Source: an uncultured virus (IMG/VR IMGVR_UViG_3300047352_000567)
Taxonomy: Duplodnaviria > Heunggongvirae > Uroviricota > Caudoviricetes
Virus record (IMG/VR): IMGVR_UViG_3300047352_000567
DNA: 26,850 bases
Reading direction: 5' to 3' (one strand)
Under the pieces are notes generated by a model. That model searched no databases. It was given only the letters and a program-made list of their open reading frames with translations, and was not told where the DNA came from. Below, in pieces: positions 4,897-24,350 of this stretch (positions within the stretch are counted from its first letter, which is position 1; each line of letters begins with the position of its first letter). A program made the translations under genes and the position numbers.

Positions 4897-5559
4897 ATGG
4901 CAAACAGAAAAAATAAAACACTAAATTCTTCTGGACTGACTCTACACGATATAGAGCCTTTAACACGAAATCAAGTTCTAGCCTTTGAAAGCGAAAAAAA
5001 CATGATTCTTCACGGTGTAGCGGGTACAGGAAAAACATTTATCTCTTGCTATCTTGCATTTGATGATATGATAAAAAATTTGTATAAACAGCTTATTATC
5101 ATAAGAAGTGCGGTTCCAACTCGAGATATTGGTTTTTTACCTGGAAGTGAAAAAGAAAAAGCCTCTGTATATGAAGAGCCCTACAAGGATATTGCAGTAG
5201 AACTATTCCAGCGGGGAGATGCCTATGAGATACTAAAAACAAAAGCACTAGTACACTTTATGACTACATCATATTTAAGAGGAGTTACTCTTAAAGACGC
5301 AGTTATAATTGTAGATGAGTGTCAGAATATGTCGTTTCATGAGCTAGATTCTATAGTAACTCGGGTCGGAGAAAACTGTAGAATTATTTTCTGCGGTGAC
5401 TTTCGACAAGCAGATCTACAGAAAAACGGCTTGCAAGAATTTATACGAATACTCAAAGCTATGGATCAATTTGATTTAATAGATTTTGAGATAAAGGACA
5501 TTGTACGCAGTAACTTTGTAAGAGATTACATTACTGCGAAAACGGATCTTGGTCTGTGA
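4897..5559 (+). CDS. phoH: PhoH-like ATPase
   Basis: Walker A GVAGTGKT, RDIGFLPG, YLRGVTL, IVDECQN, GDFRQADL, DIVRS. ATG at 4897. Confidence 0.93.
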   Translation: MANRKNKTLNSSGLTLHDIEPLTRNQVLAFESEKNMILHGVAGTGKTFISCYLAFDDMIKNLYKQLIIIRSAVPTRDIGFLPGSEKEKASVYEEPYKDIAVELFQRGDAYEILKTKALVHFMTTSYLRGVTLKDAVIIVDECQNMSFHELDSIVTRVGENCRIIFCGDFRQADLQKNGLQEFIRILKAMDQFDLIDFEIKDIVRSNFVRDYITAKTDLGL

Positions 5560-7918: not shown

Positions 7919-8874
7919 TTTTATTTACTGCTGACTGGCACATTAAACTGGGACAAAAGAATGTCCCAGTTGAGTGGGCAACCAAAAGATATAACGAATT
8001 TTTTGACCAAGTGCATCAACAATCAGAGAGTTGTGACATGCACATCATTGGAGGAGATTTGTTTGATCGCATACCTACAATGGAGGAGCTTTCTCTATAC
8101 TTTTCTTTTATACGAAAGGTAAAGAAGCCCACTCTAGTATATGACGGTAACCATGAAGCAACTCGTAAGAATAGAACATTTTTTTCACAACTTAAACAAG
8201 CATCAAGAGATATCAACCCATTAGTAAATGTGGTTGATATCTCTTATGTTGATGAAGATTTAGGTTTTGGTGTACTGCCCTATGCCGATTTACACAGAAA
8301 AGACAGCATAGAGCATTTTAGTACAGAACAACCTCTATTCACTCATGTGAGGGGCGAAATACCTCCTCATGTAAAACCAGAGGTAGATCTAGATCGTTTT
8401 GCTGATTTTCCTGTAGTGTTTGCAGGAGATTTACACGCACATAGTAACACACAAAGAAATATTGTATATCCAGGTAGTCCAATGACCACTTCTTTTCATA
8501 GACAAGAGGTTGAAACAGGCTACCTTCTTATCAATCCCAAAGATTGGTCGTGGGACTGGTGGCCTTTTACTCTGCCTCAGTTACTAAGAAAAACAGTAAC
8601 TAATCCAGCAGATATGATACCCACTAATTATCATCACACAATCTATGAAATAGAAGGAGATATACAAGAGCTAGCTTCAGTAGAAAACACAGAGTTACTT
8701 GACAAGAAAGTTGTAAAAAGAAATTCTGAAGCATCCTTAATTATTGAAAAGGATATGACTTTAGACGAAGAGCTGGTAGAGTACCTAAAATATATTTTAG
8801 AGCTTCCAGAAGATAAAATAAGTAATATTTTGGGGACATATAATGATTACGCTCAAAAAGCTCAAGTGGAGTAA
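7915..8874 (+). CDS. D12: Mre11/SbcD-like metallophosphoesterase nuclease (T5 D12)
   Basis: ADWH, GGDLFD, GNHE, THV, GDLH, YPGSP phosphoesterase motifs. Confidence 0.92.
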   Translation: MILFTADWHIKLGQKNVPVEWATKRYNEFFDQVHQQSESCDMHIIGGDLFDRIPTMEELSLYFSFIRKVKKPTLVYDGNHEATRKNRTFFSQLKQASRDINPLVNVVDISYVDEDLGFGVLPYADLHRKDSIEHFSTEQPLFTHVRGEIPPHVKPEVDLDRFADFPVVFAGDLHAHSNTQRNIVYPGSPMTTSFHRQEVETGYLLINPKDWSWDWWPFTLPQLLRKTVTNPADMIPTNYHHTIYEIEGDIQELASVENTELLDKKVVKRNSEASLIIEKDMTLDEELVEYLKYILELPEDKISNILGTYNDYAQKAQVE

Positions 8875-10645
8875 TTGCTTTAGCTATGGCCCAGACAATG
8901 AGCTACAGCTAGACGATAACACTGTCACTCAAATAATTGGTACAAATGGTATGGGCAAATCGTCTATACCATTAATTATTGAGGAGGCACTATACAATAA
9001 AAACTCAAAAGGCATCAAAAAAGCAGACATACCGAATAGGTATATAAACGACGGCTATGATATTGAGTTGGAATTTGAAAAGTCTGGCAAAGAGTATTTA
9101 ATTCGTATAAATAGAAAAAACAACATAAAAGTTGCTTTACTAGAAGATGGAGAAGATATATCAAGTCACACGGCTACAAACACCTATAAAAGTATACAGG
9201 ACATAGTGGGAGTAGATTTTAAGACTTTTTCACAGCTTGTTTATCAAAATACAAATGCTAGCTTACAGTTTCTTACCGCTACCGATACTAATAGGAAAAA
9301 GTTTCTAATTGATCTGTTAAGGCTGGAAGAGTACGTTCAGTTATTTGAAGTATTTAAAGAAGCATCACGAGAGTCTTCAAATAAGATGATTGAGGTATCC
9401 TCAGAAATTACAACTATTGAAAAATGGTTATCAAACAATAAACTTGAGGCTACCAATATACTACCACTATTAAATTTAGAAATTGATACGGAAGAAGATG
9501 AGAAGACATTCCGTTCTCTTTCAGTAGAACTTAAAAATATTTCCGAAAAAAATAAAAAAATTCTAAAAAATAATCACTATAAAGAAATGCTGGGCGGGAT
9601 AGATATTAACAAAATACAATCCTCATTAGAAACACTTCCTCCTACAGAGTCTTATGACAAATATCAGAGTATCATAGGACAGGTAGAAGGTGCTAAAAGA
9701 GCTTCTGATAACATGATGCAAAAGCTTGAGCAATTAGGAGATAAGTGCCCTACTTGCGAGCAAGATATAGATGCAGAGTTTAAAAATGAGTTAATCAGAG
9801 CCGAGAAAAAAACTCTCGAGTTTCTAGCTTCAAAGAAAGAAGATAACGAAGACATCATACGACAGATAAAAAGAAATAATGCTGCTAGAACTAATTTATC
9901 CAATGCGCAGAAAGAGTGGGAAGACCTTTTCAGAAGTATAGACAATACTTTACCCACTAACCTTCTTAACGCAGAAGAGCTGCAAGAAAAGCTAGATGAA
10001 GTAAGTGCAAAACTAAAAACTGCAAAAGCAGAACTAGCTAATATTGCTTCACAGAATGAAGCAATTACAAAGAGAAATACTAGAATTGAGATAATTCAGG
10101 CCCAGACAGATGGTTTTATACAAAAACTAGCTGCAGCACAGGAAGTTTTAGATCAGCAAAAAGAATTAGACTCTAGCTTAGAGATTCTAAAGAAAGCATT
10201 TAGTACAAACGGACTTCTTGCGTATAAAATTGAAAATCTAGTAAAAGAGCTAGAAGAGCTAGCAAATAGTTATCTTGCAGAACTATCCGACGGTAGATTT
10301 ACGCTAGAGTTTATTGTATCAAATGATAAATTAAATGTGCAGATTACTGATAATGAGAATATTGTCGATATTTTAGCGCTTTCTTCTGGGGAGCTAGCAA
10401 GAGTAAATACTGCAACTTTGATAGCTATTCGTAAACTAATGAGTAGCATATCAAAGTCAAGAATAAATATACTTTTCTTAGATGAAGTTATAAATGTTCT
10501 TGACGAAAGTGGCAGAGAAAAGATGGTAGAAGTATTACTACAAGAGGATTTAAATACCTATGTAGTGTCACACGGCTGGACTCATCCTCTTTTAGAAAAA
10601 ATAGAGGTTGTCAAAAAAGGAAACGTGAGTAAACTTGAATGGTAG
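8843..10645 (+). CDS. D13: Rad50/SbcC-like SMC ATPase (T5 D13)
   Basis: Walker A GTNGMGKS, Q-loop VYQ, coiled coil with CPTC zinc hook, signature LSSGE, Walker B FLDE, VSH H-loop. Confidence 0.94.
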   Translation: MITLKKLKWSNCFSYGPDNELQLDDNTVTQIIGTNGMGKSSIPLIIEEALYNKNSKGIKKADIPNRYINDGYDIELEFEKSGKEYLIRINRKNNIKVALLEDGEDISSHTATNTYKSIQDIVGVDFKTFSQLVYQNTNASLQFLTATDTNRKKFLIDLLRLEEYVQLFEVFKEASRESSNKMIEVSSEITTIEKWLSNNKLEATNILPLLNLEIDTEEDEKTFRSLSVELKNISEKNKKILKNNHYKEMLGGIDINKIQSSLETLPPTESYDKYQSIIGQVEGAKRASDNMMQKLEQLGDKCPTCEQDIDAEFKNELIRAEKKTLEFLASKKEDNEDIIRQIKRNNAARTNLSNAQKEWEDLFRSIDNTLPTNLLNAEELQEKLDEVSAKLKTAKAELANIASQNEAITKRNTRIEIIQAQTDGFIQKLAAAQEVLDQQKELDSSLEILKKAFSTNGLLAYKIENLVKELEELANSYLAELSDGRFTLEFIVSNDKLNVQITDNENIVDILALSSGELARVNTATLIAIRKLMSSISKSRINILFLDEVINVLDESGREKMVEVLLQEDLNTYVVSHGWTHPLLEKIEVVKKGNVSKLEW

Positions 10646-11784
10646 ATGAAAAATTACAACTAATTCTTTTTAACGAAGAGTGTAGGCAGAGCAATCAAAT
10701 AGAGCTGATAGCAAGTGAGAACTTTGCAAGTGAGGCTGTAAAAGAGCTTTGCGGTAGTGTTTTTACTAATAAGTACGCTGAAGGTTATCCTGGTGCTCGT
10801 TACTATAATGGTTGCGAGTACATGGATGCTGTAGAAAGATATGCACAAGAATTAGTTCAAAAACTATATGGCTGTTCATACTCTAATGTTCAGCCCCATA
10901 GCGGGGTCAATGCAAATACAGCAGTATATCAAGCATTTCTAAAGCCAGGAGATAAAATTCTTGGAATGGACTTAGCTAGTGGAGGTCATTTGAGCCATGG
11001 TGCAAAACCAACTTTAAGCGGTAAGGTATATGAAGCACACTCTTATGGTGTAAAAGAAGACGGCTGGATTGACTACGAACAAGTAGAAAGGGTTGCCTTA
11101 GAGCAGAATGTGGATATGATTGTAGCAGGTGCAAGTGCTTACTCTCGTCATATAGATTGGGGTAAATTTAGAGATATTGCAAAAAAAGTAAATGCCTATC
11201 TTTTGTGTGATATGGCGCACTACAGTGGGCTAGTCGCAGCAAGAATGTATCCGAGTCCGATTCCTTTTGCCGATGTAGTTACAAGCACTACTCATAAGAC
11301 ACTACGAGGACCAAGAGGTGGTATGATTCTTTGGAATAATCCAAATTATACTAAAAAAATAAATAGTGCTATTTTTCCTGGAACACAGGGCGGACCTCTT
11401 ATGAATATGATTGCTGCAAAAGCACAGTGCTACTCAGAGGCATTACAACCTTCTTTTGGGCATTATATATTTAATGTAATTAAGAATGCTCGTACAATGT
11501 CAAAAGTATTTACTGACGCAGGATATAACGTAATTACGGGAGGAACTGATAGTCATCTACTTCTTCTTGATTTAAGTGATAAAACCATCAGTGGAAAAGA
11601 AGCCGCAGATAGACTTGAAGAGAATGGAATTACTGTAAATAAAAATGGTGTGCCCAATGATCCTCGTAATTTTATTGAAACAAGCGGTATAAGAATTGGT
11701 ACGGCAGCAGAAACAACAAAAAATAGATCTAACTACTGGTTTCAAGACTTGGCGGGTATGATGATCGAGATATTGGAGAAGTAG
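10639..11784 (+). CDS. glyA: Serine hydroxymethyltransferase (PLP-dependent), auxiliary metabolic gene
   Basis: LIASENF, NKYAEGYPGARYY, NVQPHSG, GGHLSHG, DMAH, TTHKTLRGPRGG (PLP lysine), FPGTQGGP, GGTDSH, NKN, SGIRIGT. Confidence 0.97.
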   Translation: MVDEKLQLILFNEECRQSNQIELIASENFASEAVKELCGSVFTNKYAEGYPGARYYNGCEYMDAVERYAQELVQKLYGCSYSNVQPHSGVNANTAVYQAFLKPGDKILGMDLASGGHLSHGAKPTLSGKVYEAHSYGVKEDGWIDYEQVERVALEQNVDMIVAGASAYSRHIDWGKFRDIAKKVNAYLLCDMAHYSGLVAARMYPSPIPFADVVTSTTHKTLRGPRGGMILWNNPNYTKKINSAIFPGTQGGPLMNMIAAKAQCYSEALQPSFGHYIFNVIKNARTMSKVFTDAGYNVITGGTDSHLLLLDLSDKTISGKEAADRLEENGITVNKNGVPNDPRNFIETSGIRIGTAAETTKNRSNYWFQDLAGMMIEILEK

Positions 11785-12230
11785 TGGTAGACTCAAGAGC
11801 AAAAGGGGCGAGGGGGGAGTATCTCGTAAGAGATATGTTGCGAGAGCATACTGGACATCAGTTCGAAAGAGTTCCTAGCTCTGGCGCACTTGAGTACTTA
11901 AAAGGAGACTTATATGTTCCTCATGCAAAAAATAAATTTTGCATAGAAGTAAAGAACTACGCAGAGTCTCCTCTTACAGATAAAATATTTACAGCAAGTA
12001 AAACTAATAACTTAATACAGTGGTGGAAAAAACTAGAAAGACAAGCAGAGCAAGGAAGTCAAGAGCCTTTACTGTTTTTCAAATATAATAGATCACCAGT
12101 TTTTGTAGTAACGGTAGAGCCGCCCAGTAAAACAGAAGAATATATGTTTATATGTTTCTTAAACTGTTTTGTCCTGCTTGCAGAAGAGTGGCTAACCAAA
12201 GAAAAGGTAGAATTTTTAGATGGCATTTAA
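11784..12230 (+). CDS. D14: Holliday-junction resolvase-like PD-(D/E)xK nuclease (T5 D14)
   Basis: SRAKGARGE...RVPSSGA...KGDL...IEVK motif. GTG start with GGAG RBS. Synteny before D15. Confidence 0.88.
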   Translation: MVDSRAKGARGEYLVRDMLREHTGHQFERVPSSGALEYLKGDLYVPHAKNKFCIEVKNYAESPLTDKIFTASKTNNLIQWWKKLERQAEQGSQEPLLFFKYNRSPVFVVTVEPPSKTEEYMFICFLNCFVLLAEEWLTKEKVEFLDGI

Positions 12231-13059: not shown

Positions 13060-14818
13060 CTATAATCGTGATAATTATCTATCTGAGTTCAGTATTAAAA
13101 CACTGGAAGATAGATATTTAATCGGGGACGAAAAATCTCCCCAAGAAGCATTCGCTCGTGCAGCAAAGTGTTTTTCCGACAATGAAGCACACGCCCAGAG
13201 ACTCTACGACTATGCAAGCAAGTTGTGGTTTATGTTTTCTACACCTGTGCTTTCCAACGGTGGAAGTGCTCGTGGAATGCCTATAAGCTGCTTTTTGAAT
13301 TATGTAGACGATAGTAGAGAGGGCATCACAGACCACTATACAGAAAATGCTTTTCTATCTTCCGTTGGAGGAGGAGTTGGTGGCTGCTGGAGCGGGGTTC
13401 GGAGTGTAGGCTCGAAAACGAGCAATGGCTCCGAAAGTACGGGTGTAATACCGTTTATGAAAGTTGTAGATGCTGAAATGCTTGCTTTCTCTCAGGGAGT
13501 AACTCGACGTGGAAGCTATGCAGCATATCTTGATATGTCTCATCCTGAAATTGAGGAGTTTTTAGATGTCCGTAAACCTACTGGTGGAGATATTAACAGG
13601 AAGTCTACTAATTTGCACCACGGCGTTGTTGTCTCTGATGCTTTTATGCAAATTATTGAAAACGCTACTAGAGCACCCGGTTTCGACGATAGCTGGGATC
13701 TTATTGATCCCCATAGTAATGCTACTGTAAAAACAGTATCGGCAAAAACACTTTGGGTAAAACTTATTCAAAATCGTGTTGAAACGGGTGAACCTTACAT
13801 TATGTTTGGTGATACTGTGGACGAAAGCGTGCCAGAATTTCAGCAAAAACTTGGATTAAAAGTTCATCAATCAAATCTATGTTCTGAAATTACACTTCCT
13901 ACAGATAAAGACCGCACAGCGGTATGCTGCCTGTCAAGTGTAAATTTAGAAGAGTATGATGAGTGGAAAGATAATGACCAATTTATTCCTGATTTGGTAA
14001 GAATGTTGGATAACGTACTACAGTACTTTATTGACCATGCTCCGGATCAGCTATATCGCGCAAAGTATAGTGCAATGAGAGAAAGAAGTATTGGTCTTGG
14101 CGCAATGGGCTTTCATGCCTATCTACAACGTCATAACACTCCATTTGAGAGTCCTATGGCAAAGAGTAGGAACATGCAAATGTTCTCACGGATTAAGTCG
14201 GAGGCGGAACGTGCAACCAGAGAGTTGGCTAAAGAAAGAGGTGAATGTCCTGATGGAGAGGGTTACGGTGTTCGGAACGCTCACCTTCTTGCTATTGCTC
14301 CTAACGCCAGTAGCAGTATTATCTGTGGTAATACTTCTCCTTCAATTGAGCCTTACCGTGCTAATGCTTTTACTCAGAAAACTAAAACGGGGAGCAGTTT
14401 ACTTAAAAATGAATATCTCGAAGCTGTCCTCCAGGATCTCGGTCATGACACCGACGATGTCTGGAAAAGTATTGTTACGAGTAACGGCTCTGTACAACAC
14501 TTGGATTTCTTGGATGATTGGACGAAAGACGTCTTTAAAACGGCGGTGGAAATCGACCAAAGATGGGTGATCGAGCTTGCAGCAGATAGACAAGAGTTTA
14601 TATGCCAAAGCCAATCACTCAATGTCTTTTTTCCTGCGAATGTATCAAAACAAGAACTTCACGCTATACATATAATGGCCTGGAAAAGAGGAGTAAAAAC
14701 TCTATACTACTTACGAAGCGAAGCGTATAAAAGAGCAGAAACAATTTCAGATGAAGTCTTACGCGCTAGAATCTTTGAAAGTATAGACGATGACGGTTGT
14801 CTTGCTTGTGAGGGGTAG
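13049..14818 (+). CDS. nrdA: Ribonucleotide reductase class I alpha subunit, lacking ATP cone
   Basis: STPVLSN, PISCF, GGGVG, SQGVTRRG, SNLCSEI, VCCLSS, APNASSS, TLYY and C-terminal CLAC. 589 aa. Confidence 0.96.
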   Translation: MQINYNRDNYLSEFSIKTLEDRYLIGDEKSPQEAFARAAKCFSDNEAHAQRLYDYASKLWFMFSTPVLSNGGSARGMPISCFLNYVDDSREGITDHYTENAFLSSVGGGVGGCWSGVRSVGSKTSNGSESTGVIPFMKVVDAEMLAFSQGVTRRGSYAAYLDMSHPEIEEFLDVRKPTGGDINRKSTNLHHGVVVSDAFMQIIENATRAPGFDDSWDLIDPHSNATVKTVSAKTLWVKLIQNRVETGEPYIMFGDTVDESVPEFQQKLGLKVHQSNLCSEITLPTDKDRTAVCCLSSVNLEEYDEWKDNDQFIPDLVRMLDNVLQYFIDHAPDQLYRAKYSAMRERSIGLGAMGFHAYLQRHNTPFESPMAKSRNMQMFSRIKSEAERATRELAKERGECPDGEGYGVRNAHLLAIAPNASSSIICGNTSPSIEPYRANAFTQKTKTGSSLLKNEYLEAVLQDLGHDTDDVWKSIVTSNGSVQHLDFLDDWTKDVFKTAVEIDQRWVIELAADRQEFICQSQSLNVFFPANVSKQELHAIHIMAWKRGVKTLYYLRSEAYKRAETISDEVLRARIFESIDDDGCLACEG

Positions 14819-16219: not shown

Positions 16220-18814
16220 TTAAGGCCCTTGTTGTCCTGAAGTTAAGTTATTCCATAGCGTATCGGGATTATATGTAAAAGTTGCCGTTCCATTTGAGTT
16301 TATGCCTCGAATTATGCTTTTAGTAGAAGATGAAGCAGTATTACCCGAAGCTCCATCACCTATTGCTGCATAATATGTTCCATTTGGCAGTGCGCCACTT
16401 CTTGTTGAATCATAGGTTCCATTTTTCCAGTAATGTAACTTTTTAGTGTTTCTATCAAGCATAAAAGAATAGGTAGCTCCCCCGCTCGCAGAACCCTCTC
16501 CTCCATAGTGTCCTGTAGTATTTGTAGTAACATCTCTTAAATGAAGATCAGAGTTAATCTTTGCAGTACTTATAAAACCTCCGCTATAATATGCTTGAGA
16601 AGAGTTAGTTGTAAACTCATAATATACTTTAGAAAGCCCTGATTGACTATTAGCAATAGTATAAGTAGTATGGGTAGCAGAAAGGGTTCCTAAGTTGCCT
16701 GCATTATATACCTCTATGTTATTTCCATTATCATTTAATTGCCATCCTGAGCCGCTATTGTAATAATTATTAGTTGTTGTCCAATTTACATACTCATAGA
16801 AAGCTAGTGAAAACGTTGAAGAAGCACTATTGGTTCTTACCCCATCAAAAGCTTTAAATCTAGCTGTAAATGTTCCGGCATTAGAAGCAGTAGTACTAGG
16901 AGTTACTGTAAATGTGCCCCCACTTTGACTAATTGTAGCTTGAGCCTGGTTAGCCGGGGTAGTATCATGACTATAAGTAATGGCAAAGCCTTCTGGATCT
17001 GTAGCAGCTACTGTAACAGTGGTTGCTGTTCCGTCTAAAGCCAAATCATAGCTAGCCGCCGGACTAGTAGTAAACTCAGGAAGCATATTTTGTCCACTAA
17101 AAATTCTATCCCACTCTGTACCGTCCCACCCATAAAAAGCTTTTACATCCGTTACAAAAGCTAAATCTCCGGCAGTATTTCCAGAAGAAGGAAGAGCTGC
17201 GATATTTGCATATGTAGTAACACCCCCGCTGCTGCTGACTAGAAGCCCAGCTGCCGCAGCTGCCGCAATTTCGCCTTTTACAATTAGCTTAGTTGCTGAG
17301 ATAGCGGTTCCTGCTAACACTGAAGGAGTCCCTGCACTTGTTGAGAGTGTACCGTCGTTTTGTATATAATGAGACTGCCCAGGAGTTAACCCAGACTGAG
17401 CATCGTCTACAGAGCCAATAAGTTGAATTGTGGCAGTAGCAGAATTAGCATAAGCTGCATCGGAGACTCCTATATAGTTATTTGCTGTAAGATTTGTAGA
17501 ACTCGAATCAGCAAGTTGTAGTACAACAGCCGTTCCACGATCAGAGTTTCCCCCGTCTTGATAAACAAATACTGACTTTCCTTCATTTGAATCAAATGTA
17601 CCTCCCTGGTAAAAAATCGAGCCATTATTAGCATAAACTACTGGACTACCAAAACTAATGCTTGTACCAGATACAGTACCCGCTATTGCAGTCCCATAAC
17701 TAGAGTTTCCTGAGTCCTCATAACCAACTACGATTTTATTTATATTTGAAGCAAAGTGAGCTGAAAGATAACTTGCGGCATCCGTTTCAAATACCGTTTC
17801 ACTTCCAAAACTAATACTTGTTCCAGATACTGTACCTACAATTGCTGTTCCCCGAGTAGAGTTTCCGTCATCTCTATATAAAACAACAATTTTATCGTTA
17901 CTCGAATCATGTACAACTTGTGTATATTCTATATTTGCTGTATTAAAAGTAGCATAGCTACCAAAACTAATACTTGTTCCAGATATTGTACCTACTTGTG
18001 CTCTGCCGTGCCCGCTATTTGAATGTGCTCTATAAGCAACTATAACTTTATTATTAGTTGAATCAAATCCAAGTGCAGTACGAAGATTGATTCCAGAGTA
18101 ATAAACATATTCGCTACCAAAACTAATACTGTTACCAGATACTGTGCCTACAATTGCAGTTCCATAGCTATTATTGCCACTATCTCTATAGGCAAATACA
18201 ACTTTATTTGCGTTTGAGTCAAATGTAGCTGCTAACTCTGTAGTATTTCCACTATTAAATACGACTTCACTTCCGAAACTAATACTTGTACCAGACACTG
18301 TGCCTACAATTGCAGTTCCATAAGAGCTATTATCACTATCTTTATAGCCAATTACAACTTTATTTGCATTTGAGTCAAATACAATTTCAATCTCTTGAGT
18401 ATTTGCACTTGCAAATGCAACTGGAGTGCCAAAACTAATACTGTTACCAGATACTGTGCCTACAACTGCATAGCCATAAAAATTATTGGTATGTGAGTAA
18501 GCAATTACAACTTTATTTGCGTTTGAATCAAACGCGGCTCTAGCAAACCTGGTGGTATCTGATTCAAATACAGTAGCACTACCAGTACCAGCACTACTTC
18601 CTGTCTGTGTAACTGCACTTACAGTACCATCAGAGTTTACTACAACCATATCTCCATTTGCAAGGGTGCCGCTTGCAACTGCTGTAATACTAGGATTCGC
18701 TGCTGTAGTAGCAGTGATCTCCCAGGTGGAAGTACTACTACTATAGGTATAAGTTCTGCCGCCTGCTGTTATTGTAGCTCCATTACTCGGGCTATCTGTA
18801 AAATTAACTGCCAT
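16220..18814 (-). CDS. Modular virion fibre / receptor-binding protein (864 aa): N-anchor, beta-propeller cassette, cadherin/Ig-like domain, SPRY/ConA-like C-domain
   Basis: AGGAGAATAAA RBS. Seven FDS..NKVVIAY / GTVSGxSISFG blade repeats. PEFTT...ATDPEG..ITYS Ig-like segment. KVYYEF...MLD..KKLHYWKNG SPRY-like segment. Ser/Thr/Gly/Asn rich. Confidence 0.75.
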   Translation of the reverse strand: MAVNFTDSPSNGATITAGGRTYTYSSSTSTWEITATTAANPSITAVASGTLANGDMVVVNSDGTVSAVTQTGSSAGTGSATVFESDTTRFARAAFDSNANKVVIAYSHTNNFYGYAVVGTVSGNSISFGTPVAFASANTQEIEIVFDSNANKVVIGYKDSDNSSYGTAIVGTVSGTSISFGSEVVFNSGNTTELAATFDSNANKVVFAYRDSGNNSYGTAIVGTVSGNSISFGSEYVYYSGINLRTALGFDSTNNKVIVAYRAHSNSGHGRAQVGTISGTSISFGSYATFNTANIEYTQVVHDSSNDKIVVLYRDDGNSTRGTAIVGTVSGTSISFGSETVFETDAASYLSAHFASNINKIVVGYEDSGNSSYGTAIAGTVSGTSISFGSPVVYANNGSIFYQGGTFDSNEGKSVFVYQDGGNSDRGTAVVLQLADSSSTNLTANNYIGVSDAAYANSATATIQLIGSVDDAQSGLTPGQSHYIQNDGTLSTSAGTPSVLAGTAISATKLIVKGEIAAAAAAGLLVSSSGGVTTYANIAALPSSGNTAGDLAFVTDVKAFYGWDGTEWDRIFSGQNMLPEFTTSPAASYDLALDGTATTVTVAATDPEGFAITYSHDTTPANQAQATISQSGGTFTVTPSTTASNAGTFTARFKAFDGVRTNSASSTFSLAFYEYVNWTTTNNYYNSGSGWQLNDNGNNIEVYNAGNLGTLSATHTTYTIANSQSGLSKVYYEFTTNSSQAYYSGGFISTAKINSDLHLRDVTTNTTGHYGGEGSASGGATYSFMLDRNTKKLHYWKNGTYDSTRSGALPNGTYYAAIGDGASGNTASSSTKSIIRGINSNGTATFTYNPDTLWNNLTSGQQGP
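17649..18465 (-). repeat. Six 156-nt-period repeats encoding GT(V/I)SG(T/N)SISFG propeller strands
   Basis: CC(A/G)AAACTAAT cores at 17649, 17805, 17961, 18117, 18273, 18429. Confidence 0.9.
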
Positions 18815-18815
18815 T

Positions 18816-19070
18816 TTATTCTCCTATCTGTTCACTCGATGGCTCAGTCCACTCCGAATTTAATGTCCACGTTGAATCGGCATAAATATATTTACAGCCG
18901 GTCCAGTCACTAGGGGGTGTAACATTCTCCACTACAGTAACATTACTCGAGTTTAAGTCTCCAATAATGAAGTTAGGAGTAGTTATAGAGTCTGAGTTAA
19001 CAGATAGAGATACGCTGTCCTCAAAAATATATAGAGACCAATTATTTTCGTTCCTGATTATTGTTTTCAT
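18816..19070 (-). CDS. Small fibre-associated protein, possible tail fibre assembly chaperone (84 aa)
   Basis: Sits between two fibre genes. C-terminal ENVTPPSDWTGCKYIY...WTLNSEW resembles fibre-assembly-type small proteins (recalled). GGA RBS. Confidence 0.6.
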   Translation of the reverse strand: MKTIIRNENNWSLYIFEDSVSLSVNSDSITTPNFIIGDLNSSNVTVVENVTPPSDWTGCKYIYADSTWTLNSEWTEPSSEQIGE

Positions 19071-19076
19071 AATTTT

Positions 19077-22000
19077 TTATCCTTTTACAATTAATTTAGT
19101 TGCAGATACTGCAGTTCCTGCGAATACTGAAGGAGAATCTGCAGATGTTGAAAGTGTACCATCAGTTTGTACATAGTAAGCTTGACCAGCCGTTAGCCCG
19201 GATTGAGCATCATCTACTGAACCAACTATTTGAATTGTAGCAGTAGCAGAGTCTGAATATGCTGCATCTGCTATTCCTATATAGTTGGTTCCTGTAAGAT
19301 TTGTTGAACTCGAAGCAGCAAGTTGTCCTACAACAGCAGTTCCATAATTTGAATTTCCTCCGTCTACATAAGAAAACACAGATTTATTTGAAACTGTATC
19401 AAAGGTAGATCCAAAAAAAGAACTATTTGCACTCTCTAATGTAATTTCTGTGCCAAAACTAATACTGGTACCAGAAACTGTTCCTGCTATAGCATTCCCG
19501 TAACTAGAATTTCCTTCATCCTGATAAGCAATTATAACTTTATTTGCTCCTGAATCAAAATGAGCAGATATGTGATTTGTGGTTGCATTGTTAAACGTAG
19601 CTTCACTGCCAAAACTAATAGTTGTACCAGAAACTGTTCCTACAATAGCAGCCCCAAAATAGCTGTTTGCTAAATCCCTGTACATAATAACTACTTTATT
19701 ATTAGCAGAATCAAATACCGCATTATTATACTCTAAATTAGCTCCTGAAGAATTATAGGTTACTGATGAGCCGAAACTAATACTTGTACCCGATACTGTT
19801 CCTACTTGTGCTCTCCCGTGCCCACTATTTGAGTGAGCCCTGTAAGCAACTATAACTTTACCGTTGCTAGAATCAAATGCAAGAGCATTACGAAGACTAA
19901 TTCCTGTATAGTAATTAACTGGAGTACCAAAACTAATACTATTACCCGATACTGTTCCTACCACGGCTGTTCCATAGCTAGAAACAGTATTATTCCTATA
20001 AGCAACTACAATTTTATTATTGGTAGAATCAAATGTAATTGCAGTATCTGAGGGATTGTGCGAAGCTACATTGACAGGAGTGCCAAAACTAATACTTGTA
20101 CCAGAAACTGTTCCAACAACCGCTGTCCCATAATTTGAATTACCGTGATCTCTATAAAAAATCACAACTTTATTTGAGTTTGAGTCAAATGTGGCTGTAA
20201 CATAGCTTACTTCTGCACTTTCAAAAACAACTGGAGTACCAAAACTAATACTATTACCCGATACTGTTCCTACCACGGCTGTTCCATATTGTGAGTTTCC
20301 AACGTCTTCATATGCAATTACAACTTTTCCGGAATTTGAGTCAAACGTAGCTGCAGTATAGGAAGTAGAAGCAGACTCAAATACAGTTGCAGATCCTACG
20401 CCTGCACTGCTTGATGTTTGCGATACTGCACTTACACTACCATCGGAGTTTACTACAACTAAATCTCCATTTGCAAGGGTGCCGCTTGCGGTTGCTGTAA
20501 GAGTTCCTCCGCCGGAGCCTTCATTGTCCGCAGCGGGAGCCCACTCACTTCCACTCCACTTTAGCACCTGGCCCGCGCTAGGACTTGTAGTACTTACATT
20601 TGTTAAGTCCGATAAAACGCCCGATACTGTTCCTGAGTCAGGATTCGCAAATTCAACCCATTGATTACTACTCCCATCCGCATAGTAAATATAGGGTGTT
20701 AGAGAAGAGGAGCTCCACCATAGATCTCCAGATGAGGGGCTGCCGGGAGCGCTATCTGAAACTGTTACAGAAGCTCCTCCGCTACTTTGTGCAGTCCAGC
20801 TTAAATTACCAGATCCATCTGTTTTTAATACATAATTTGCAGTTCCATCCGCAGTAGGCCAACTTAATCCATCAAGTATGATTTTTCCTGAGCCATTTGG
20901 AGTTATCGAAATATTTCCATTACTAACAGAAACAATGCTTTGTCCGTTTACATCTAAAGAACCTCCAAGCTGTGGAGTGGTATCTGCAACTACAGAGGCT
21001 ATTCCTCCGCCGGAAGTAGAGTATCCATAGCTTAAAATCTTATCTTCAATTGCAGCAGAAGTCATTAGAGATGTATCATTGTTTGCAAAAGACTCAGAAC
21101 TTAATTGTATAGAGTTAGCCGCAAACTCTGAAACTGTTAAATCTGCAACATTTAGAGTAACACTACCTGAGGTTCCTCCACCAGATAAGCCGGTTCCTGC
21201 AGTTACTCCTTCTATATCGCCGGAAGCTGTGGAAGAGCTAGTAGTATGCTCCATTAATAACTCTGTCGCAGAAATAGCAAGACCCATTTTAACGTTGTAA
21301 CTATCTGCCGTAGTACTTAAAGTACCATCAGATGTAAGATAGTATGTAGAGCCTGTTGTTAAACTGGATTGATTTCTGTCAACTCCACCAATTAAATTTA
21401 CAGTGCCCGAAGCGCCCGCAGAAATAGCTTCTTCAGCGATACCAACTATTGTTTTATCAATATTTGTTGCAGTGACTGTTTGCTGTATACCATACATTTC
21501 ACCATCAAGCTCACTAATCATACCCGCGCCTTGACCATATCTGGTATAACCAAACATCAGCCCTCCAGTTTTGTATATCAAAGTACCGGGGTGAATAGTA
21601 TTACTGTGCGTCATTACATTAACGCTTGAACCGGATGCAGAGATTCCTCCATTGGAAGCCATAGTAAGACGACTTAGCATTAATTTACGATTACTATTGT
21701 AGGAGCCATTTACAAGCAGCACTACAGTATTTGTATCAGGGTCGACCGTGGCTACTGCAATTGCAGCACTAAGAAAGTTATAGTTTAGTCCAGAATCCGT
21801 TCCTTTGTCTGAAATTGTAACATCGCCATTTGCTTCTATGGTAGCGCTATTAAATCCTACAGGCCAAGTTCTATAATTAGAACCATCATTAAATCTAATC
21901 TGATAGAGCATCATAAATTTTGCACGATTCGGAATATATACTACATTTAATCCTGTAGCATTCTCTCCATCAAAATATACATTTCCGGGTTGATCGCTGC

Positions 22001-24350
22001 TATCTAGCTCTGTATTTACTACAGCCGTTTGGGTGCCTAGCGTTATAGTACCACCAGAAGAAGTCCACTTTCTAAAGTAAACATCTTCTCCAGAGCCGTA
22101 AACGGCTAGACCCGCGTCTCTTACAGGATCGTATGCCACTGAAGTTGCAGAAGGAGCAGAGCCTAGAGTTACCGCTGAGCCTACTGAAAAAGTATCATTT
22201 GAGCTATCATAGGTTAGAGCTCTCATTAGTCCATTTGAGCTATCTTCGTATGCTATTACCCACTTTCCATCATTATCATCATATACAATATTATTATTGC
22301 TGTTCCAAGTTGAACTACCACTCCAAATTTGAGTATTACTGCCCCAAGTTATTGCCCCCGTTGATGTATTAACAGTACCAACTTTATAGTAAGTATTTGA
22401 ACCATCAGAACCAATCATAACAAGCTTGTTACTTGCAGCCATAAACATAGGACCACCAGTAACTTGAGCTGTTGTACCTGGTAAAGTATTCCTAGATGTA
22501 ATTGTAGCAGTTCCATTCGCTGCTAAGGTAACCCAGGCATACTTAACACTAGAAGATTCGTAAGTTAGTATAAATATTTTATTATCATATGCTGGAACAA
22601 GTACTGCTTCCTCAAAATTAGAGTTACTTGTTCCCAAATAGTCTATCGTAGTAGTTGTTTGAGTAAGCGCTGCACTTGTAGTACTTTCACCCGCGGTCGC
22701 ATACTGAGAATTTGCTGTATCATATACAATTACATTGCCTGCACTTGCAGCGTCGGAAATAGTAAGTTCTGCTTGTACTGTTTTAATTTGATCTACAAAA
22801 GATAAAGTACCGCTTCCATTGCTTTGTAATACTTGGTCTGCATTTCCATCATTATTCGGAAAGGTAAGAGTATAAGAAGCATTAGCACTATGAGGAGGCC
22901 CCTGTAGTTTAATGCCATGAGAATTTTGCTCACAGTTTAGAGTTATAGAGCCAGAACCTGCTGTAGAATTACCTCGTACTTTAAATAGTCCGGAGCCATT
23001 TGGATCTATTTCTACGTGGCCATTGCTTGCTGACGTTATGAGTTGCCCGTTTACATCAAGCCCTCCGCCAAGCTGGGGAGTTGTATCAGTAACTATGTTT
23101 GGTACTATATTTGCTGAACCGTCGAAAGATACTCCCCCGATAGTTCTTGCAGTAGTTAAAGTAGCTGCAGAGCCTGTAGTGTTTTGATTTCCTGCTGTAT
23201 TAACACCCGGAAGATTGATATTTGCAGACCCATCAAATGATACTCCCCCGATAGTTCTTGCAGTAGTTAAAGTTGCAGCAGAACCTGTAGTGTTTTGATT
23301 TCCTCCAGTATTTACACCTGGAAGGTTAATATTATTAGAGCCATCAAACGATACTCCTCCAATAGTTCTAGCAGTCTCCAGTATAGTTGCTTTTGCGGCT
23401 GTTCCGGAAGTATTTTGATTTCCCGCTGTATTAACACCCGGTAAATTTATATTTGCAGACCCATTAAACGATACGCCACCAATAGTTCTTGCAGTCTCAA
23501 GTGTGCTAGCGGTGGCCGCGTTTCCAGTAGTGTCTTGATTTCCCGCCGTATTAACACCCGGAAGATTTATATTTGCAGAACCGTCAAACGATACACCTCC
23601 AAGAGTTCTTGGTGTAGTTAAAGTAGCAGCAGAGCCTGTAGTATTTTGATTACCCGTTGTATTAACACCTGGAAGGTCTATATTTGCAGACCCATTAAAC
23701 GATACGCCACCAATAGTTCTTGCAGTTTCTAATGTTGTTGCAGTTGCAGCGTTGCCAGTAGTATTCTGGTTAAGAGTGCCTACAGTAAAATCTACTGTGC
23801 CATCAGTATCATCATATGCTACAGTTATACCACTTTCAGTATTACCCGAAAACATTGCTCCCACAGTGTCTTGAATTTGCTCGGATAAACTAATATCTGC
23901 AGAACCATCAAATGCTACTCCATGAATAGTTCTTGGTGTAGTTAAAGTAGCAGCAGAACCCGTAGTATTTTGATTTCCTGCTGTATTAACACCCGGAAGA
24001 TTGATATTTGCAGAGCCATCAAAGGATACTCCACCGATAGTTCTTGCAGTAGTTAAAGTAGCTGCAGAACCTGTGGTATTTTGATTTAGAGTTGCTACTG
24101 TTGCGTCTATAGCACCGTCTCCCGCATCATCATATGCAAAAGATATACCATTATGAGAGCCGTTGGTTACTAGCTGAGCTCCAACTAAATCCTGAACTTG
24201 TTCATTCGTTAGCCCACCCCCGCCTCCGCCTCCGCCTCCGCCGGAAGTTACCTCCCAGCGAGACTTACTGGAGTTAAACGTATAAGTTACTCCTCCGGAT
24301 GTAATTGTGTCTCCATTTGAGGGAGAGTTTGTAAAGTCTACAAATGCCAT
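19077..24350 (-). CDS. Large tail/virion fibre protein (1757 aa) with fibre shaft repeats and two beta-propeller cassettes
   Basis: AAGGAG RBS. Poly-Gly linker, eight TARTIGGVSFDGSANI-type repeats, two DTTPQLGG.LDVNGQ motifs, one divergent and one regular propeller, LSDLTNV...GQVLKWSGSEW motif. Confidence 0.8.
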   Translation of the reverse strand: MAFVDFTNSPSNGDTITSGGVTYTFNSSKSRWEVTSGGGGGGGGGGLTNEQVQDLVGAQLVTNGSHNGISFAYDDAGDGAIDATVATLNQNTTGSAATLTTARTIGGVSFDGSANINLPGVNTAGNQNTTGSAATLTTPRTIHGVAFDGSADISLSEQIQDTVGAMFSGNTESGITVAYDDTDGTVDFTVGTLNQNTTGNAATATTLETARTIGGVSFNGSANIDLPGVNTTGNQNTTGSAATLTTPRTLGGVSFDGSANINLPGVNTAGNQDTTGNAATASTLETARTIGGVSFNGSANINLPGVNTAGNQNTSGTAAKATILETARTIGGVSFDGSNNINLPGVNTGGNQNTTGSAATLTTARTIGGVSFDGSANINLPGVNTAGNQNTTGSAATLTTARTIGGVSFDGSANIVPNIVTDTTPQLGGGLDVNGQLITSASNGHVEIDPNGSGLFKVRGNSTAGSGSITLNCEQNSHGIKLQGPPHSANASYTLTFPNNDGNADQVLQSNGSGTLSFVDQIKTVQAELTISDAASAGNVIVYDTANSQYATAGESTTSAALTQTTTTIDYLGTSNSNFEEAVLVPAYDNKIFILTYESSSVKYAWVTLAANGTATITSRNTLPGTTAQVTGGPMFMAASNKLVMIGSDGSNTYYKVGTVNTSTGAITWGSNTQIWSGSSTWNSNNNIVYDDNDGKWVIAYEDSSNGLMRALTYDSSNDTFSVGSAVTLGSAPSATSVAYDPVRDAGLAVYGSGEDVYFRKWTSSGGTITLGTQTAVVNTELDSSDQPGNVYFDGENATGLNVVYIPNRAKFMMLYQIRFNDGSNYRTWPVGFNSATIEANGDVTISDKGTDSGLNYNFLSAAIAVATVDPDTNTVVLLVNGSYNSNRKLMLSRLTMASNGGISASGSSVNVMTHSNTIHPGTLIYKTGGLMFGYTRYGQGAGMISELDGEMYGIQQTVTATNIDKTIVGIAEEAISAGASGTVNLIGGVDRNQSSLTTGSTYYLTSDGTLSTTADSYNVKMGLAISATELLMEHTTSSSTASGDIEGVTAGTGLSGGGTSGSVTLNVADLTVSEFAANSIQLSSESFANNDTSLMTSAAIEDKILSYGYSTSGGGIASVVADTTPQLGGSLDVNGQSIVSVSNGNISITPNGSGKIILDGLSWPTADGTANYVLKTDGSGNLSWTAQSSGGASVTVSDSAPGSPSSGDLWWSSSSLTPYIYYADGSSNQWVEFANPDSGTVSGVLSDLTNVSTTSPSAGQVLKWSGSEWAPAADNEGSGGGTLTATASGTLANGDLVVVNSDGSVSAVSQTSSSAGVGSATVFESASTSYTAATFDSNSGKVVIAYEDVGNSQYGTAVVGTVSGNSISFGTPVVFESAEVSYVTATFDSNSNKVVIFYRDHGNSNYGTAVVGTVSGTSISFGTPVNVASHNPSDTAITFDSTNNKIVVAYRNNTVSSYGTAVVGTVSGNSISFGTPVNYYTGISLRNALAFDSSNGKVIVAYRAHSNSGHGRAQVGTVSGTSISFGSSVTYNSSGANLEYNNAVFDSANNKVVIMYRDLANSYFGAAIVGTVSGTTISFGSEATFNNATTNHISAHFDSGANKVIIAYQDEGNSSYGNAIAGTVSGTSISFGTEITLESANSSFFGSTFDTVSNKSVFSYVDGGNSNYGTAVVGQLAASSSTNLTGTNYIGIADAAYSDSATATIQIVGSVDDAQSGLTAGQAYYVQTDGTLSTSADSPSVFAGTAVSATKLIVKG
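19453..20288 (-). repeat. Six ~156-nt-period propeller repeats, including an exact 60-nt duplicate
   Basis: Cores at 19453, 19609, 19771, 19927, 20083, 20239. 19917-19976 is identical to 20229-20288. Confidence 0.9.
23106..24090 (-). repeat. Tail-fibre shaft repeats (37-40 aa, T(A/P)RTIGGVSFDGSANINLPGVNTAGNQNTTG), 8 copies
   Basis: Directly visible in the translation and as 111-120 nt direct repeats. Confidence 0.92.

Follow-up and report, generated by a model that had tools for sequence, protein, structure and literature searches.

In Tequintavirus DT57C, a T5-type phage, the genes D10, D11, D12, D13, D14, and D15 follow one another in this order, and D13 and D14 are separated by 3 nucleotides (nt) with nothing between them, in agreement with the adjacency that a first-pass annotation had given for T5. 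The same gene order is found in the 26,850-nt stretch of viral DNA analyzed here (the window; IMG/VR record IMGVR_UViG_3300047352_000567, an uncultured member of the Caudoviricetes). In the window, however, the D13-D14 junction is a variable slot, and it is occupied by glyA, a gene for serine hydroxymethyltransferase (SHMT).

Phage-encoded SHMTs have been listed before. In the accessible part of PMC1524935, Table 3 gives 44RRORF008c of Aeromonas phage 44RR2.8t as an SHMT, and the accessible part of PMC10653327 includes glyA among the auxiliary metabolic genes of marine viruses from seawater viromes, as a KEGG-type entry only, with no lineage, short form, or T5-like context. PMC11480375 concerns a phage alaS, and the word glyA does not occur in its accessible text. 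The SHMT of the Aeromonas T4-like phages 44RR2.8t and 31 (phrog_9968) resembles the enzyme described below in being phage encoded, about 387 amino acids (aa) long, and devoid of the same terminal helix. It differs in being only 49 to 50% identical, in lacking the substitutions typical of the marine clade, and in its position, ahead of gene 39 of a T4-like genome. Extra genes between conserved neighbors, swapped by recombination in the flanks, are familiar as phage morons or gene-boundary accessory slots. Unlike those, glyA in the window has no intergenic space for a promoter or a terminator, since overlaps fuse it to its neighbors at both ends. Thus, phage glyA is already known; no paper on the short phage-only form, its swapping between slots, a T5-like glyA, or its activity was found in the main texts of openly searchable papers.

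We consider it probable that glyA encodes an intact, short, phage-only SHMT, that the gene likely came from a T4-like marine phage and was likely joined to a duplicate of the D14 start, and that the product is a pyridoxal phosphate (PLP)-dependent dimer making glycine and methylene-tetrahydrofolate (methylene-THF) for host thymidylate and purine synthesis during phage replication.

The D13-glyA-D14 junction

The features relevant to this proposal, in window coordinates, are as follows.

5556..5559, plus strand: phoH-D10 junction (slot A), empty here; in relatives it holds thyX or a sister copy of glyA
8843..10645, plus strand: D13, SbcC-like subunit (phrog_77, 8e-96), whose last codons, GAA TGG TAG, enclose the glyA start
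10638..10647, plus strand: left repeat copy, AATGGTAGAT, in which RTGGTA likely comes from the D14 start and GAY is the native Asp codon of SHMT
10639..11784, plus strand: glyA, a 381-aa SHMT of the short phage-only clade, starting ATG GTA GAT and ending AAG TAG
11296-11298, plus strand: codon of the PLP lysine, K220 of glyA, from alignment with E. coli GlyA
11775..11778, plus strand: GGAG in the glyA tail, 5 nt before D14, a putative Shine-Dalgarno-like site for D14 judged from sequence
11783..11792, plus strand: right repeat copy, AGTGGTAGAC, with the glyA stop TAG over the D14 GTG
11784..12230, plus strand: D14, Holliday-junction resolvase-like (phrog_244, PF24608), starting GTG GTA GAC

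The coordinates bear out the earlier description of glyA as overlapping both the D13 stop (by 7 nt) and the D14 start (by 1 nt). The first-pass annotation had also proposed a 7-bp duplication, TGGTAGA. This heptamer is indeed present at 10640 and 11785, but the repeat is better described as the degenerate 10-mer ARTGGTAGAY. Bare TGGTAGA is common in the source genome, G000 (88,850 nt; a virus record rated 100% complete, with direct terminal repeats), where 7 copies lie on the plus strand and 7 on the minus strand, 14 in total. The extended forms RTGGTAGAY and ARTGGTAGAY were found, on both strands of the 88,850 nt, solely at the two junctions (at 10638 and 11783 for the 10-mer). Because the extended form is confined to these two places genome-wide, the repeat goes beyond chance.

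The arrangement follows the pattern of a target-site duplication, with one copy at the empty site and two around the insert. As the first-pass annotation had anticipated, relatives without glyA do have a D13 whose Trp-stop end overlaps an RTGGTAGAY D14 start: among the 80 best D14 loci, 10 are empty in this way, 13 are empty with D14 starting a few bases on, 13 hold glyA, and 44 hold other short inserts. At 33 of 35 distinct left junctions, glyA starts with RTGGTA (24 with RTGGTAGAY, 5 with ATGGTAAGT, and 4 with ATGGTAAAT), and in 24 of 25 right ends its stop lies over the D14 start, the remaining one reading through. In one relative, L020, the 10-nt copies flanking glyA are exact. None of the 63 glyA genes of other phages starts with RTGGTA; these begin mostly with MD or MN and never with MV. 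The sister glyA copies at phoH-D10 also lack this start. The right junction of L043/L089 is peculiar in that CAG replaces the glyA stop, and the frame reads on to ...KQW-stop, which recreates a Trp-stop overlap on the D14 start.

Not all of the repeat can be credited to D14. Asp3 of glyA aligns with E. coli D12, the native helix-cap Asp of SHMT, and position 3 is Asn or Ser in 9 of 35 glyA junctions. For these two reasons, RTGGTA is the only part for which derivation from D14 is likely. In the left copy, ATG and GAY are native, while the GTA codon is absent in outgroups and from 2 of the 35 alleles. Thus, the claim that glyA took over the D14 start likely holds for RTGGTA, but GAY is not diagnostic of it. 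Capture is likely because D13 overlaps this D14 start in empty relatives and because the Val is missing from the glyA genes of outgroup phages. The Val codon is likely what D14 contributed, and microhomology at insertion could have been provided by the ATG and GAY common to both. The insertion would have reused the terminal ATGGTA of D13 as the glyA start, with D14 keeping its own start downstream, so that glyA would ride on the replication transcript. With overlaps of 7 and 1 nt, glyA may be translationally coupled to its neighbors, as the first-pass annotation proposed; D14 also has the GGAG of its own. Contigs from RNA libraries of two studies bridge D13 and glyA in 3 of 4 runs and glyA and D14 in 2 of 4, which is weak evidence given that the libraries may contain DNA; the bridges are compatible with cotranscription but are not proof of it.

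The encoded enzyme

The glyA product scores 538 bits against NCBIfam PRK00011 (cutoff, 335) and 470 bits against the Pfam SHMT family, PF00464 (cutoff, 27). The catalytic motifs are intact, as the first-pass annotation had read them: E. coli Y55, E57, Y64, Y65, H126, D200, H203, K229, and R363 correspond to Y46, E48, Y55, Y56, H117, D191, H194, K220, and R352 of the window, and all nine are invariant in 18 SHMTs from the slot, 63 other viral SHMTs, and 78 cellular SHMTs. Every PLP and substrate residue (K229, D200, H126, H203, Y55, S35, and R363) and every folate-contact residue (E57, Y64, Y65, L121, G125, L127, S175, N347, and R363) is kept; we take the roles assigned to these catalytic and folate-site residues as given.

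Like bacterial SHMT (E. coli 1dfo, PRK00011, PF00464), the phage protein has the TTHKT motif of the PLP lysine, the fold, and a predicted dimer. Its AlphaFold model has a predicted local distance difference test (pLDDT) score of 94, and the best Foldseek match is E. coli SHMT 1dfo, with a template modeling (TM) score of 0.88 (root mean square deviation, ~9.5 Å). A homodimer with PLP was predicted with a score of 0.96, versus 0.00 for the best control, at a pLDDT of at least 95 and with runs agreeing on at least 98% of contacts. In calibration, the dimer mark was reached by 20 of 30 solved pairs and by 1 of 23 single chains, and likeness to solved SHMT dimers may have helped the phage protein to pass.

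Unlike its bacterial counterparts, to which it is 53 to 59% identical at best, the phage form lacks the last helix and the first 9 residues (E. coli GlyA numbering) and carries the substitutions G66N, T128S, V204Y, N316S, and P356F. Each of the five is shared by 85% or more of the 81 viral sequences compared and sits at a position that cellular SHMTs conserve. The first-pass annotation did not mention the N-terminal loss. The trimming of the last helix that it noted is real, E. coli residues 393 to 417 being absent, but it is a trait of the whole phage clade and not a scar of insertion. Trimming by the insertion itself was rejected, all other members of the viral clade being equally short, and the helix loss must predate the insertion because it is common to the whole clade. 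Members of the viral clade are about 378 to 393 aa long (62 of 65 in one set and 63 of 63 in another); the 78 cellular SHMTs run 15 to 37 residues longer (median, 26), and the 25 best Pseudomonadota matches have 413 to 422 aa. The final helix is typical of cellular members, and we know of no catalytic part for it. Since the listed interface has no residue beyond 357, the lost helix appears unneeded for the modeled dimer.

The gene is intact and under purifying selection. None of 28 full alleles has an internal stop, and the median dN/dS (ratio of nonsynonymous to synonymous substitution rates) against the window is 0.085 for glyA (25 pairs), similar to that of the core neighbors D13 (0.098, including one value of 1.0 that is likely an alignment artifact), D14 (0.09), and D15 (0.06).

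Origin of the phage SHMT

The first-pass annotation regarded SHMT as an uncommon phage gene. We found relatives encoded on 169 viral stretches, and the gene is not rare in marine phages. The non-T5 relatives adjoin T4-type genes (gp23, gp32, gp46/47, gp55, and a UvsW-like gene). In our trees, which were quick or FastTree runs without bootstrap, all marine viral SHMTs fall on one side of a branch with a support of 100 that separates them from cellular ones (62 viral of 160 rows, with a separate tree of 85 rows), and a long stem branch leads to the viral clade. Two T4-like sequences, L527 and L549, join the T5-like glyA at a support of 96, and the Aeromonas enzyme, which sits on a long branch (support, 86), may share an origin with the marine clade. 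A grouping of T5-like glyA with E. coli was rejected (approximately unbiased [AU] test, P = 1e-5).

Identity to other phages is 64 to 68%, and no cultured phage record exceeds 57%. The best cellular identity is 58% to the window in a scan of genome contigs (among the best 80 matches listed) and 59% to a relative, L127, in 401 Pseudomonadota genomes. Among the matches listed, no close cellular relative turned up in either of these sets or in a library of 50% clusters (at most 56% over the full length among the top rows); none of our conclusions depends on the unpublished G389. The SHMT phylogeny that had been suggested as a way to the donor or host led elsewhere: within a partial sampling of cellular sequences, glyA does not nest among its cellular homologues. 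A recent capture from the host was rejected on the same placement, with the same sampling. Judging from these sequences, the donor was likely a marine T4-like phage rather than the host. In several T4-like phages (L097, L113 to L118, L128, L140, and L154), the end of glyA runs into sequence resembling a tRNA 5' arm (GCTCAG..GGTAGAGCAG).

The junction as a variable slot

We evaluated the occupancy of the D13-D14 junction with sequence patterns. The D13-end pattern, which itself selects Trp-stop D13 ends, returned 42 empty junctions, 23 with glyA, and 1 cut locus in 66 viral contigs, and 35 empty junctions, 24 with glyA, 1 with another insert, 4 cut, and 14 flagged as non-D13 (one of which, L336, is actually an empty junction) in 78 metagenome contigs. 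The D14-start pattern returned 86 loci, of which 63 were empty, 17 held glyA, 5 held other inserts, and 1 was without D13. In L374 (597-1391), the slot is occupied by a gene for a 264-aa polysaccharide pyruvyl transferase-like protein (PF04230, 29 bits) whose ends are identical to those of glyA, with ATGGTA over the D13 stop and AAG TAG over the D14 GTG. The 5' part of this gene fills the slot in L386, and a more distant phage, L408, has a 106-aa insert with an ATGGTA start. The short inserts at the junction in 44 of the 80 D14 relatives (L016, L019, L021 to L036, and others) measure about 110 to 920 nt.

The D13 tree has 83 rows, to which 124 distinct loci had been reduced. On it, the state of glyA (present or absent) switches 12 times, and 10 of the switches are forced by starred branches. 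In L216, the identity is 64% for D13 versus 87% for glyA, which is nested near that of the window. When filled and empty alleles were compared, no pair was near-identical on both flanks, and the best left-flank and right-flank empty partners of a filled allele mostly differed. This fits homologous recombination in the flanks rather than precise excision. Precise excision via the repeat was not supported, given the lack of a near-identical filled/empty pair and of a glyA-skipping joint in contigs of 4 DNA runs, which can reveal the presence of such a joint but not its absence. Once inserted, glyA would have spread and been lost through homologous recombination within its conserved neighbors.

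A second slot lies about 5 kb upstream, between phoH and D10. It holds glyA in 7 of the 64 contigs searched (a count that leaves out 8 non-T5 loci automatically tagged as slot A that have only a distant phoH, 47 to 48%), and all 7 have an empty D13-D14 junction. The phoH-D10 copies encode 381 aa, are 71 to 73% identical, begin with MD, MN, or VH, and are sister to the glyA clade of the window (support, 99). In G434, thyX occupies this slot. Loci with glyA or thyX at phoH-D10 include L503:5677-6819 (minus strand) and L504:2753-3409. Over the 5,093 nt that run from D10 through D13, contig G465 shares 95% identity with contig G456, but the two have glyA in opposite slots. Twenty-six records span phoH to the end of D13 (G000 and 25 of 57 searched). 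Of these, 12 carry glyA at D13-D14 alone (one of them recognized by its first codons only) and 6 at phoH-D10 alone; it is missing from both slots in 8, and no record has it in both. This distribution is suggestive of one-copy redundancy across the two slots, and a single glyA copy would suffice.

In some relatives, exemplified by G432 (L503:18340-19220), thyX and a glutaredoxin-like gene lie about 18 kb upstream of D14; the corresponding position in G000 and G407 has neither. Mutual exclusion of glyA and thyX in T5-like phages was considered, as thyX is found in 14 of 24 contigs with an empty D13-D14 slot versus 0 of 9 with glyA there, and was ruled out by G432 and G006, which carry both.

Role of the enzyme and alternative explanations

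By established SHMT chemistry, the phage enzyme would convert serine and tetrahydrofolate to glycine and methylene-THF, and the latter would feed the host's synthesis of thymidylate and purines while phage DNA is replicated. Its likeliest role, with the direction and the limiting product inferred, would be to provide the host with more methylene-THF and glycine for making dTMP and purines. Several observations weigh against parts of this proposal. Searches of the complete G000 for thyA, thyX, and dihydrofolate reductase (DHFR) (PF00303, PF02511, and PF00186) gave no match, with positive controls. The link to thymidylate drawn in the first-pass annotation would therefore run through host enzymes rather than through a self-contained phage dTMP cycle. 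The absence of glyA from 8 of the 26 contigs covering both slots means that the gene is dispensable, and the never-both pattern has a P value of 0.017 on raw contigs and 0.25 once near-copies are collapsed by hand. The D13-D14 copies may have one origin or two (AU test, P = 0.25), and the lack of bootstrapping bears on all of the trees. Clade-fixed G66N, T128S, V204Y, N316S, and P356F, along with S99V in the D13-D14 alleles, lie near the active site and could alter function. Finally, L091 (MITIMDER) and L471 (MNKDIL) occupy the D13-D14 slot without RTGGTA (2 of 35). Together with the mosaic flanks of filled alleles and the native Asp3, these two alleles would fit a history in which the incoming glyA had an MD start of its own and acquired ATGGTA later, by recombination with Trp-stop-type empty alleles, so that the repeat would be no scar of capture. 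We regard this history as unlikely. Both alleles are nested among MV-starting ones in the tree, which makes MV the more parsimonious ancestral state, and the other inserts at the junction (L374/L386 and L408) also begin with ATGGTA.

With respect to function, the enzyme may be active but mainly supply glycine, from which a marine host limited by it would make protein, purines, or heme, and not methylene-THF for dTMP. The lack of thyA, thyX, and DHFR from G000 is in line with this, as is the requirement of a SAR11 host for glycine or its precursors; the accessible part of PMC12753301 reports upregulation of host glyA in one pelagiphage infection. On the other hand, both slots belong to a replication and nucleotide module beside nrdAB, and thyX, too, occurs in slot A. 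Of 14 large non-T5 contigs carrying the marine-clade glyA, 6 have thyX, which also stands alongside glyA in G432 and G006. A mainly glycine-supplying enzyme is, in our estimate, quite unlikely, and one reaction yields both products, so that the two uses are compatible. A shift of the clade in function or regulation, such as a folate-independent aldolase or an escape from folate inhibition, would account for the terminal losses, the long stem branch, and the five fixed substitutions, two of which (G66N, adjacent to Y64/Y65, and P356F) border on elements that bind folate. Yet every catalytic and folate-contact residue checked is retained, and the Aeromonas phage enzyme, in which this helix is missing and the five substitutions do not occur, points to plain streamlining. 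We therefore hold such a shift to be very unlikely.

Other features of the genome

The stretch is contained in sequencing runs of seawater or marine metagenomes. The gene content of G000 is of the T5 type (head, tail, split ligase, and D-gene order); D14 matches records annotated as D14 protein at 38% identity, nrdAB is present by sequence, and purZ/purA gave no matches in G000. The first 10,500 nt of G000 start with 78-nt tandem repeats and contain few open reading frames (ORFs) of at least 70 aa, none with a PHROG match. A permuted-type tmRNA was called at L163:5033-5411 and 5482-5555 (G000 45033-45555), with the tag ANDDVYSLAA and one tRNA-Cys, a possible clue to the host. The early region (L163:4038-4673, 16230-16664, and 13900-14607) encodes a polyphosphate kinase 2, a dATP/dGTP diphosphohydrolase, and a GT2 glycosyltransferase. 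On the minus strand of the window (16220-24350), two large tail-fiber-like ORFs (864 and 1,757 aa) have a common repeated domain, and the longer one has tandem repeats of about 39 aa.

Implications

Taken furthest, the data could describe an ancient, streamlined SHMT, confined to phages and altered in how it handles folate, that is common to marine T4-like and T5-like phages and moves as a one-copy module between unrelated families, with a start-codon socket in the T5-like phages (ATGGTA...AAG TAG/GTG) giving incoming genes instant expression in the replication operon. As a whole, this picture is speculative and improbable. Virome glyA is often doubted as host contamination or taken as a recent host capture; here, it belongs to a conserved phage-only lineage, which is recognizable and directly testable because of its diagnostic residues and shorter body. 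Near-identical phages with glyA in the phoH-D10 slot, in the D13-D14 slot, or in neither, with or without thyX, offer a ready comparison for one-carbon limits on replication. The junction itself gives a base-level view of an accessory gene entering a tightly overlapped operon without signals of its own.

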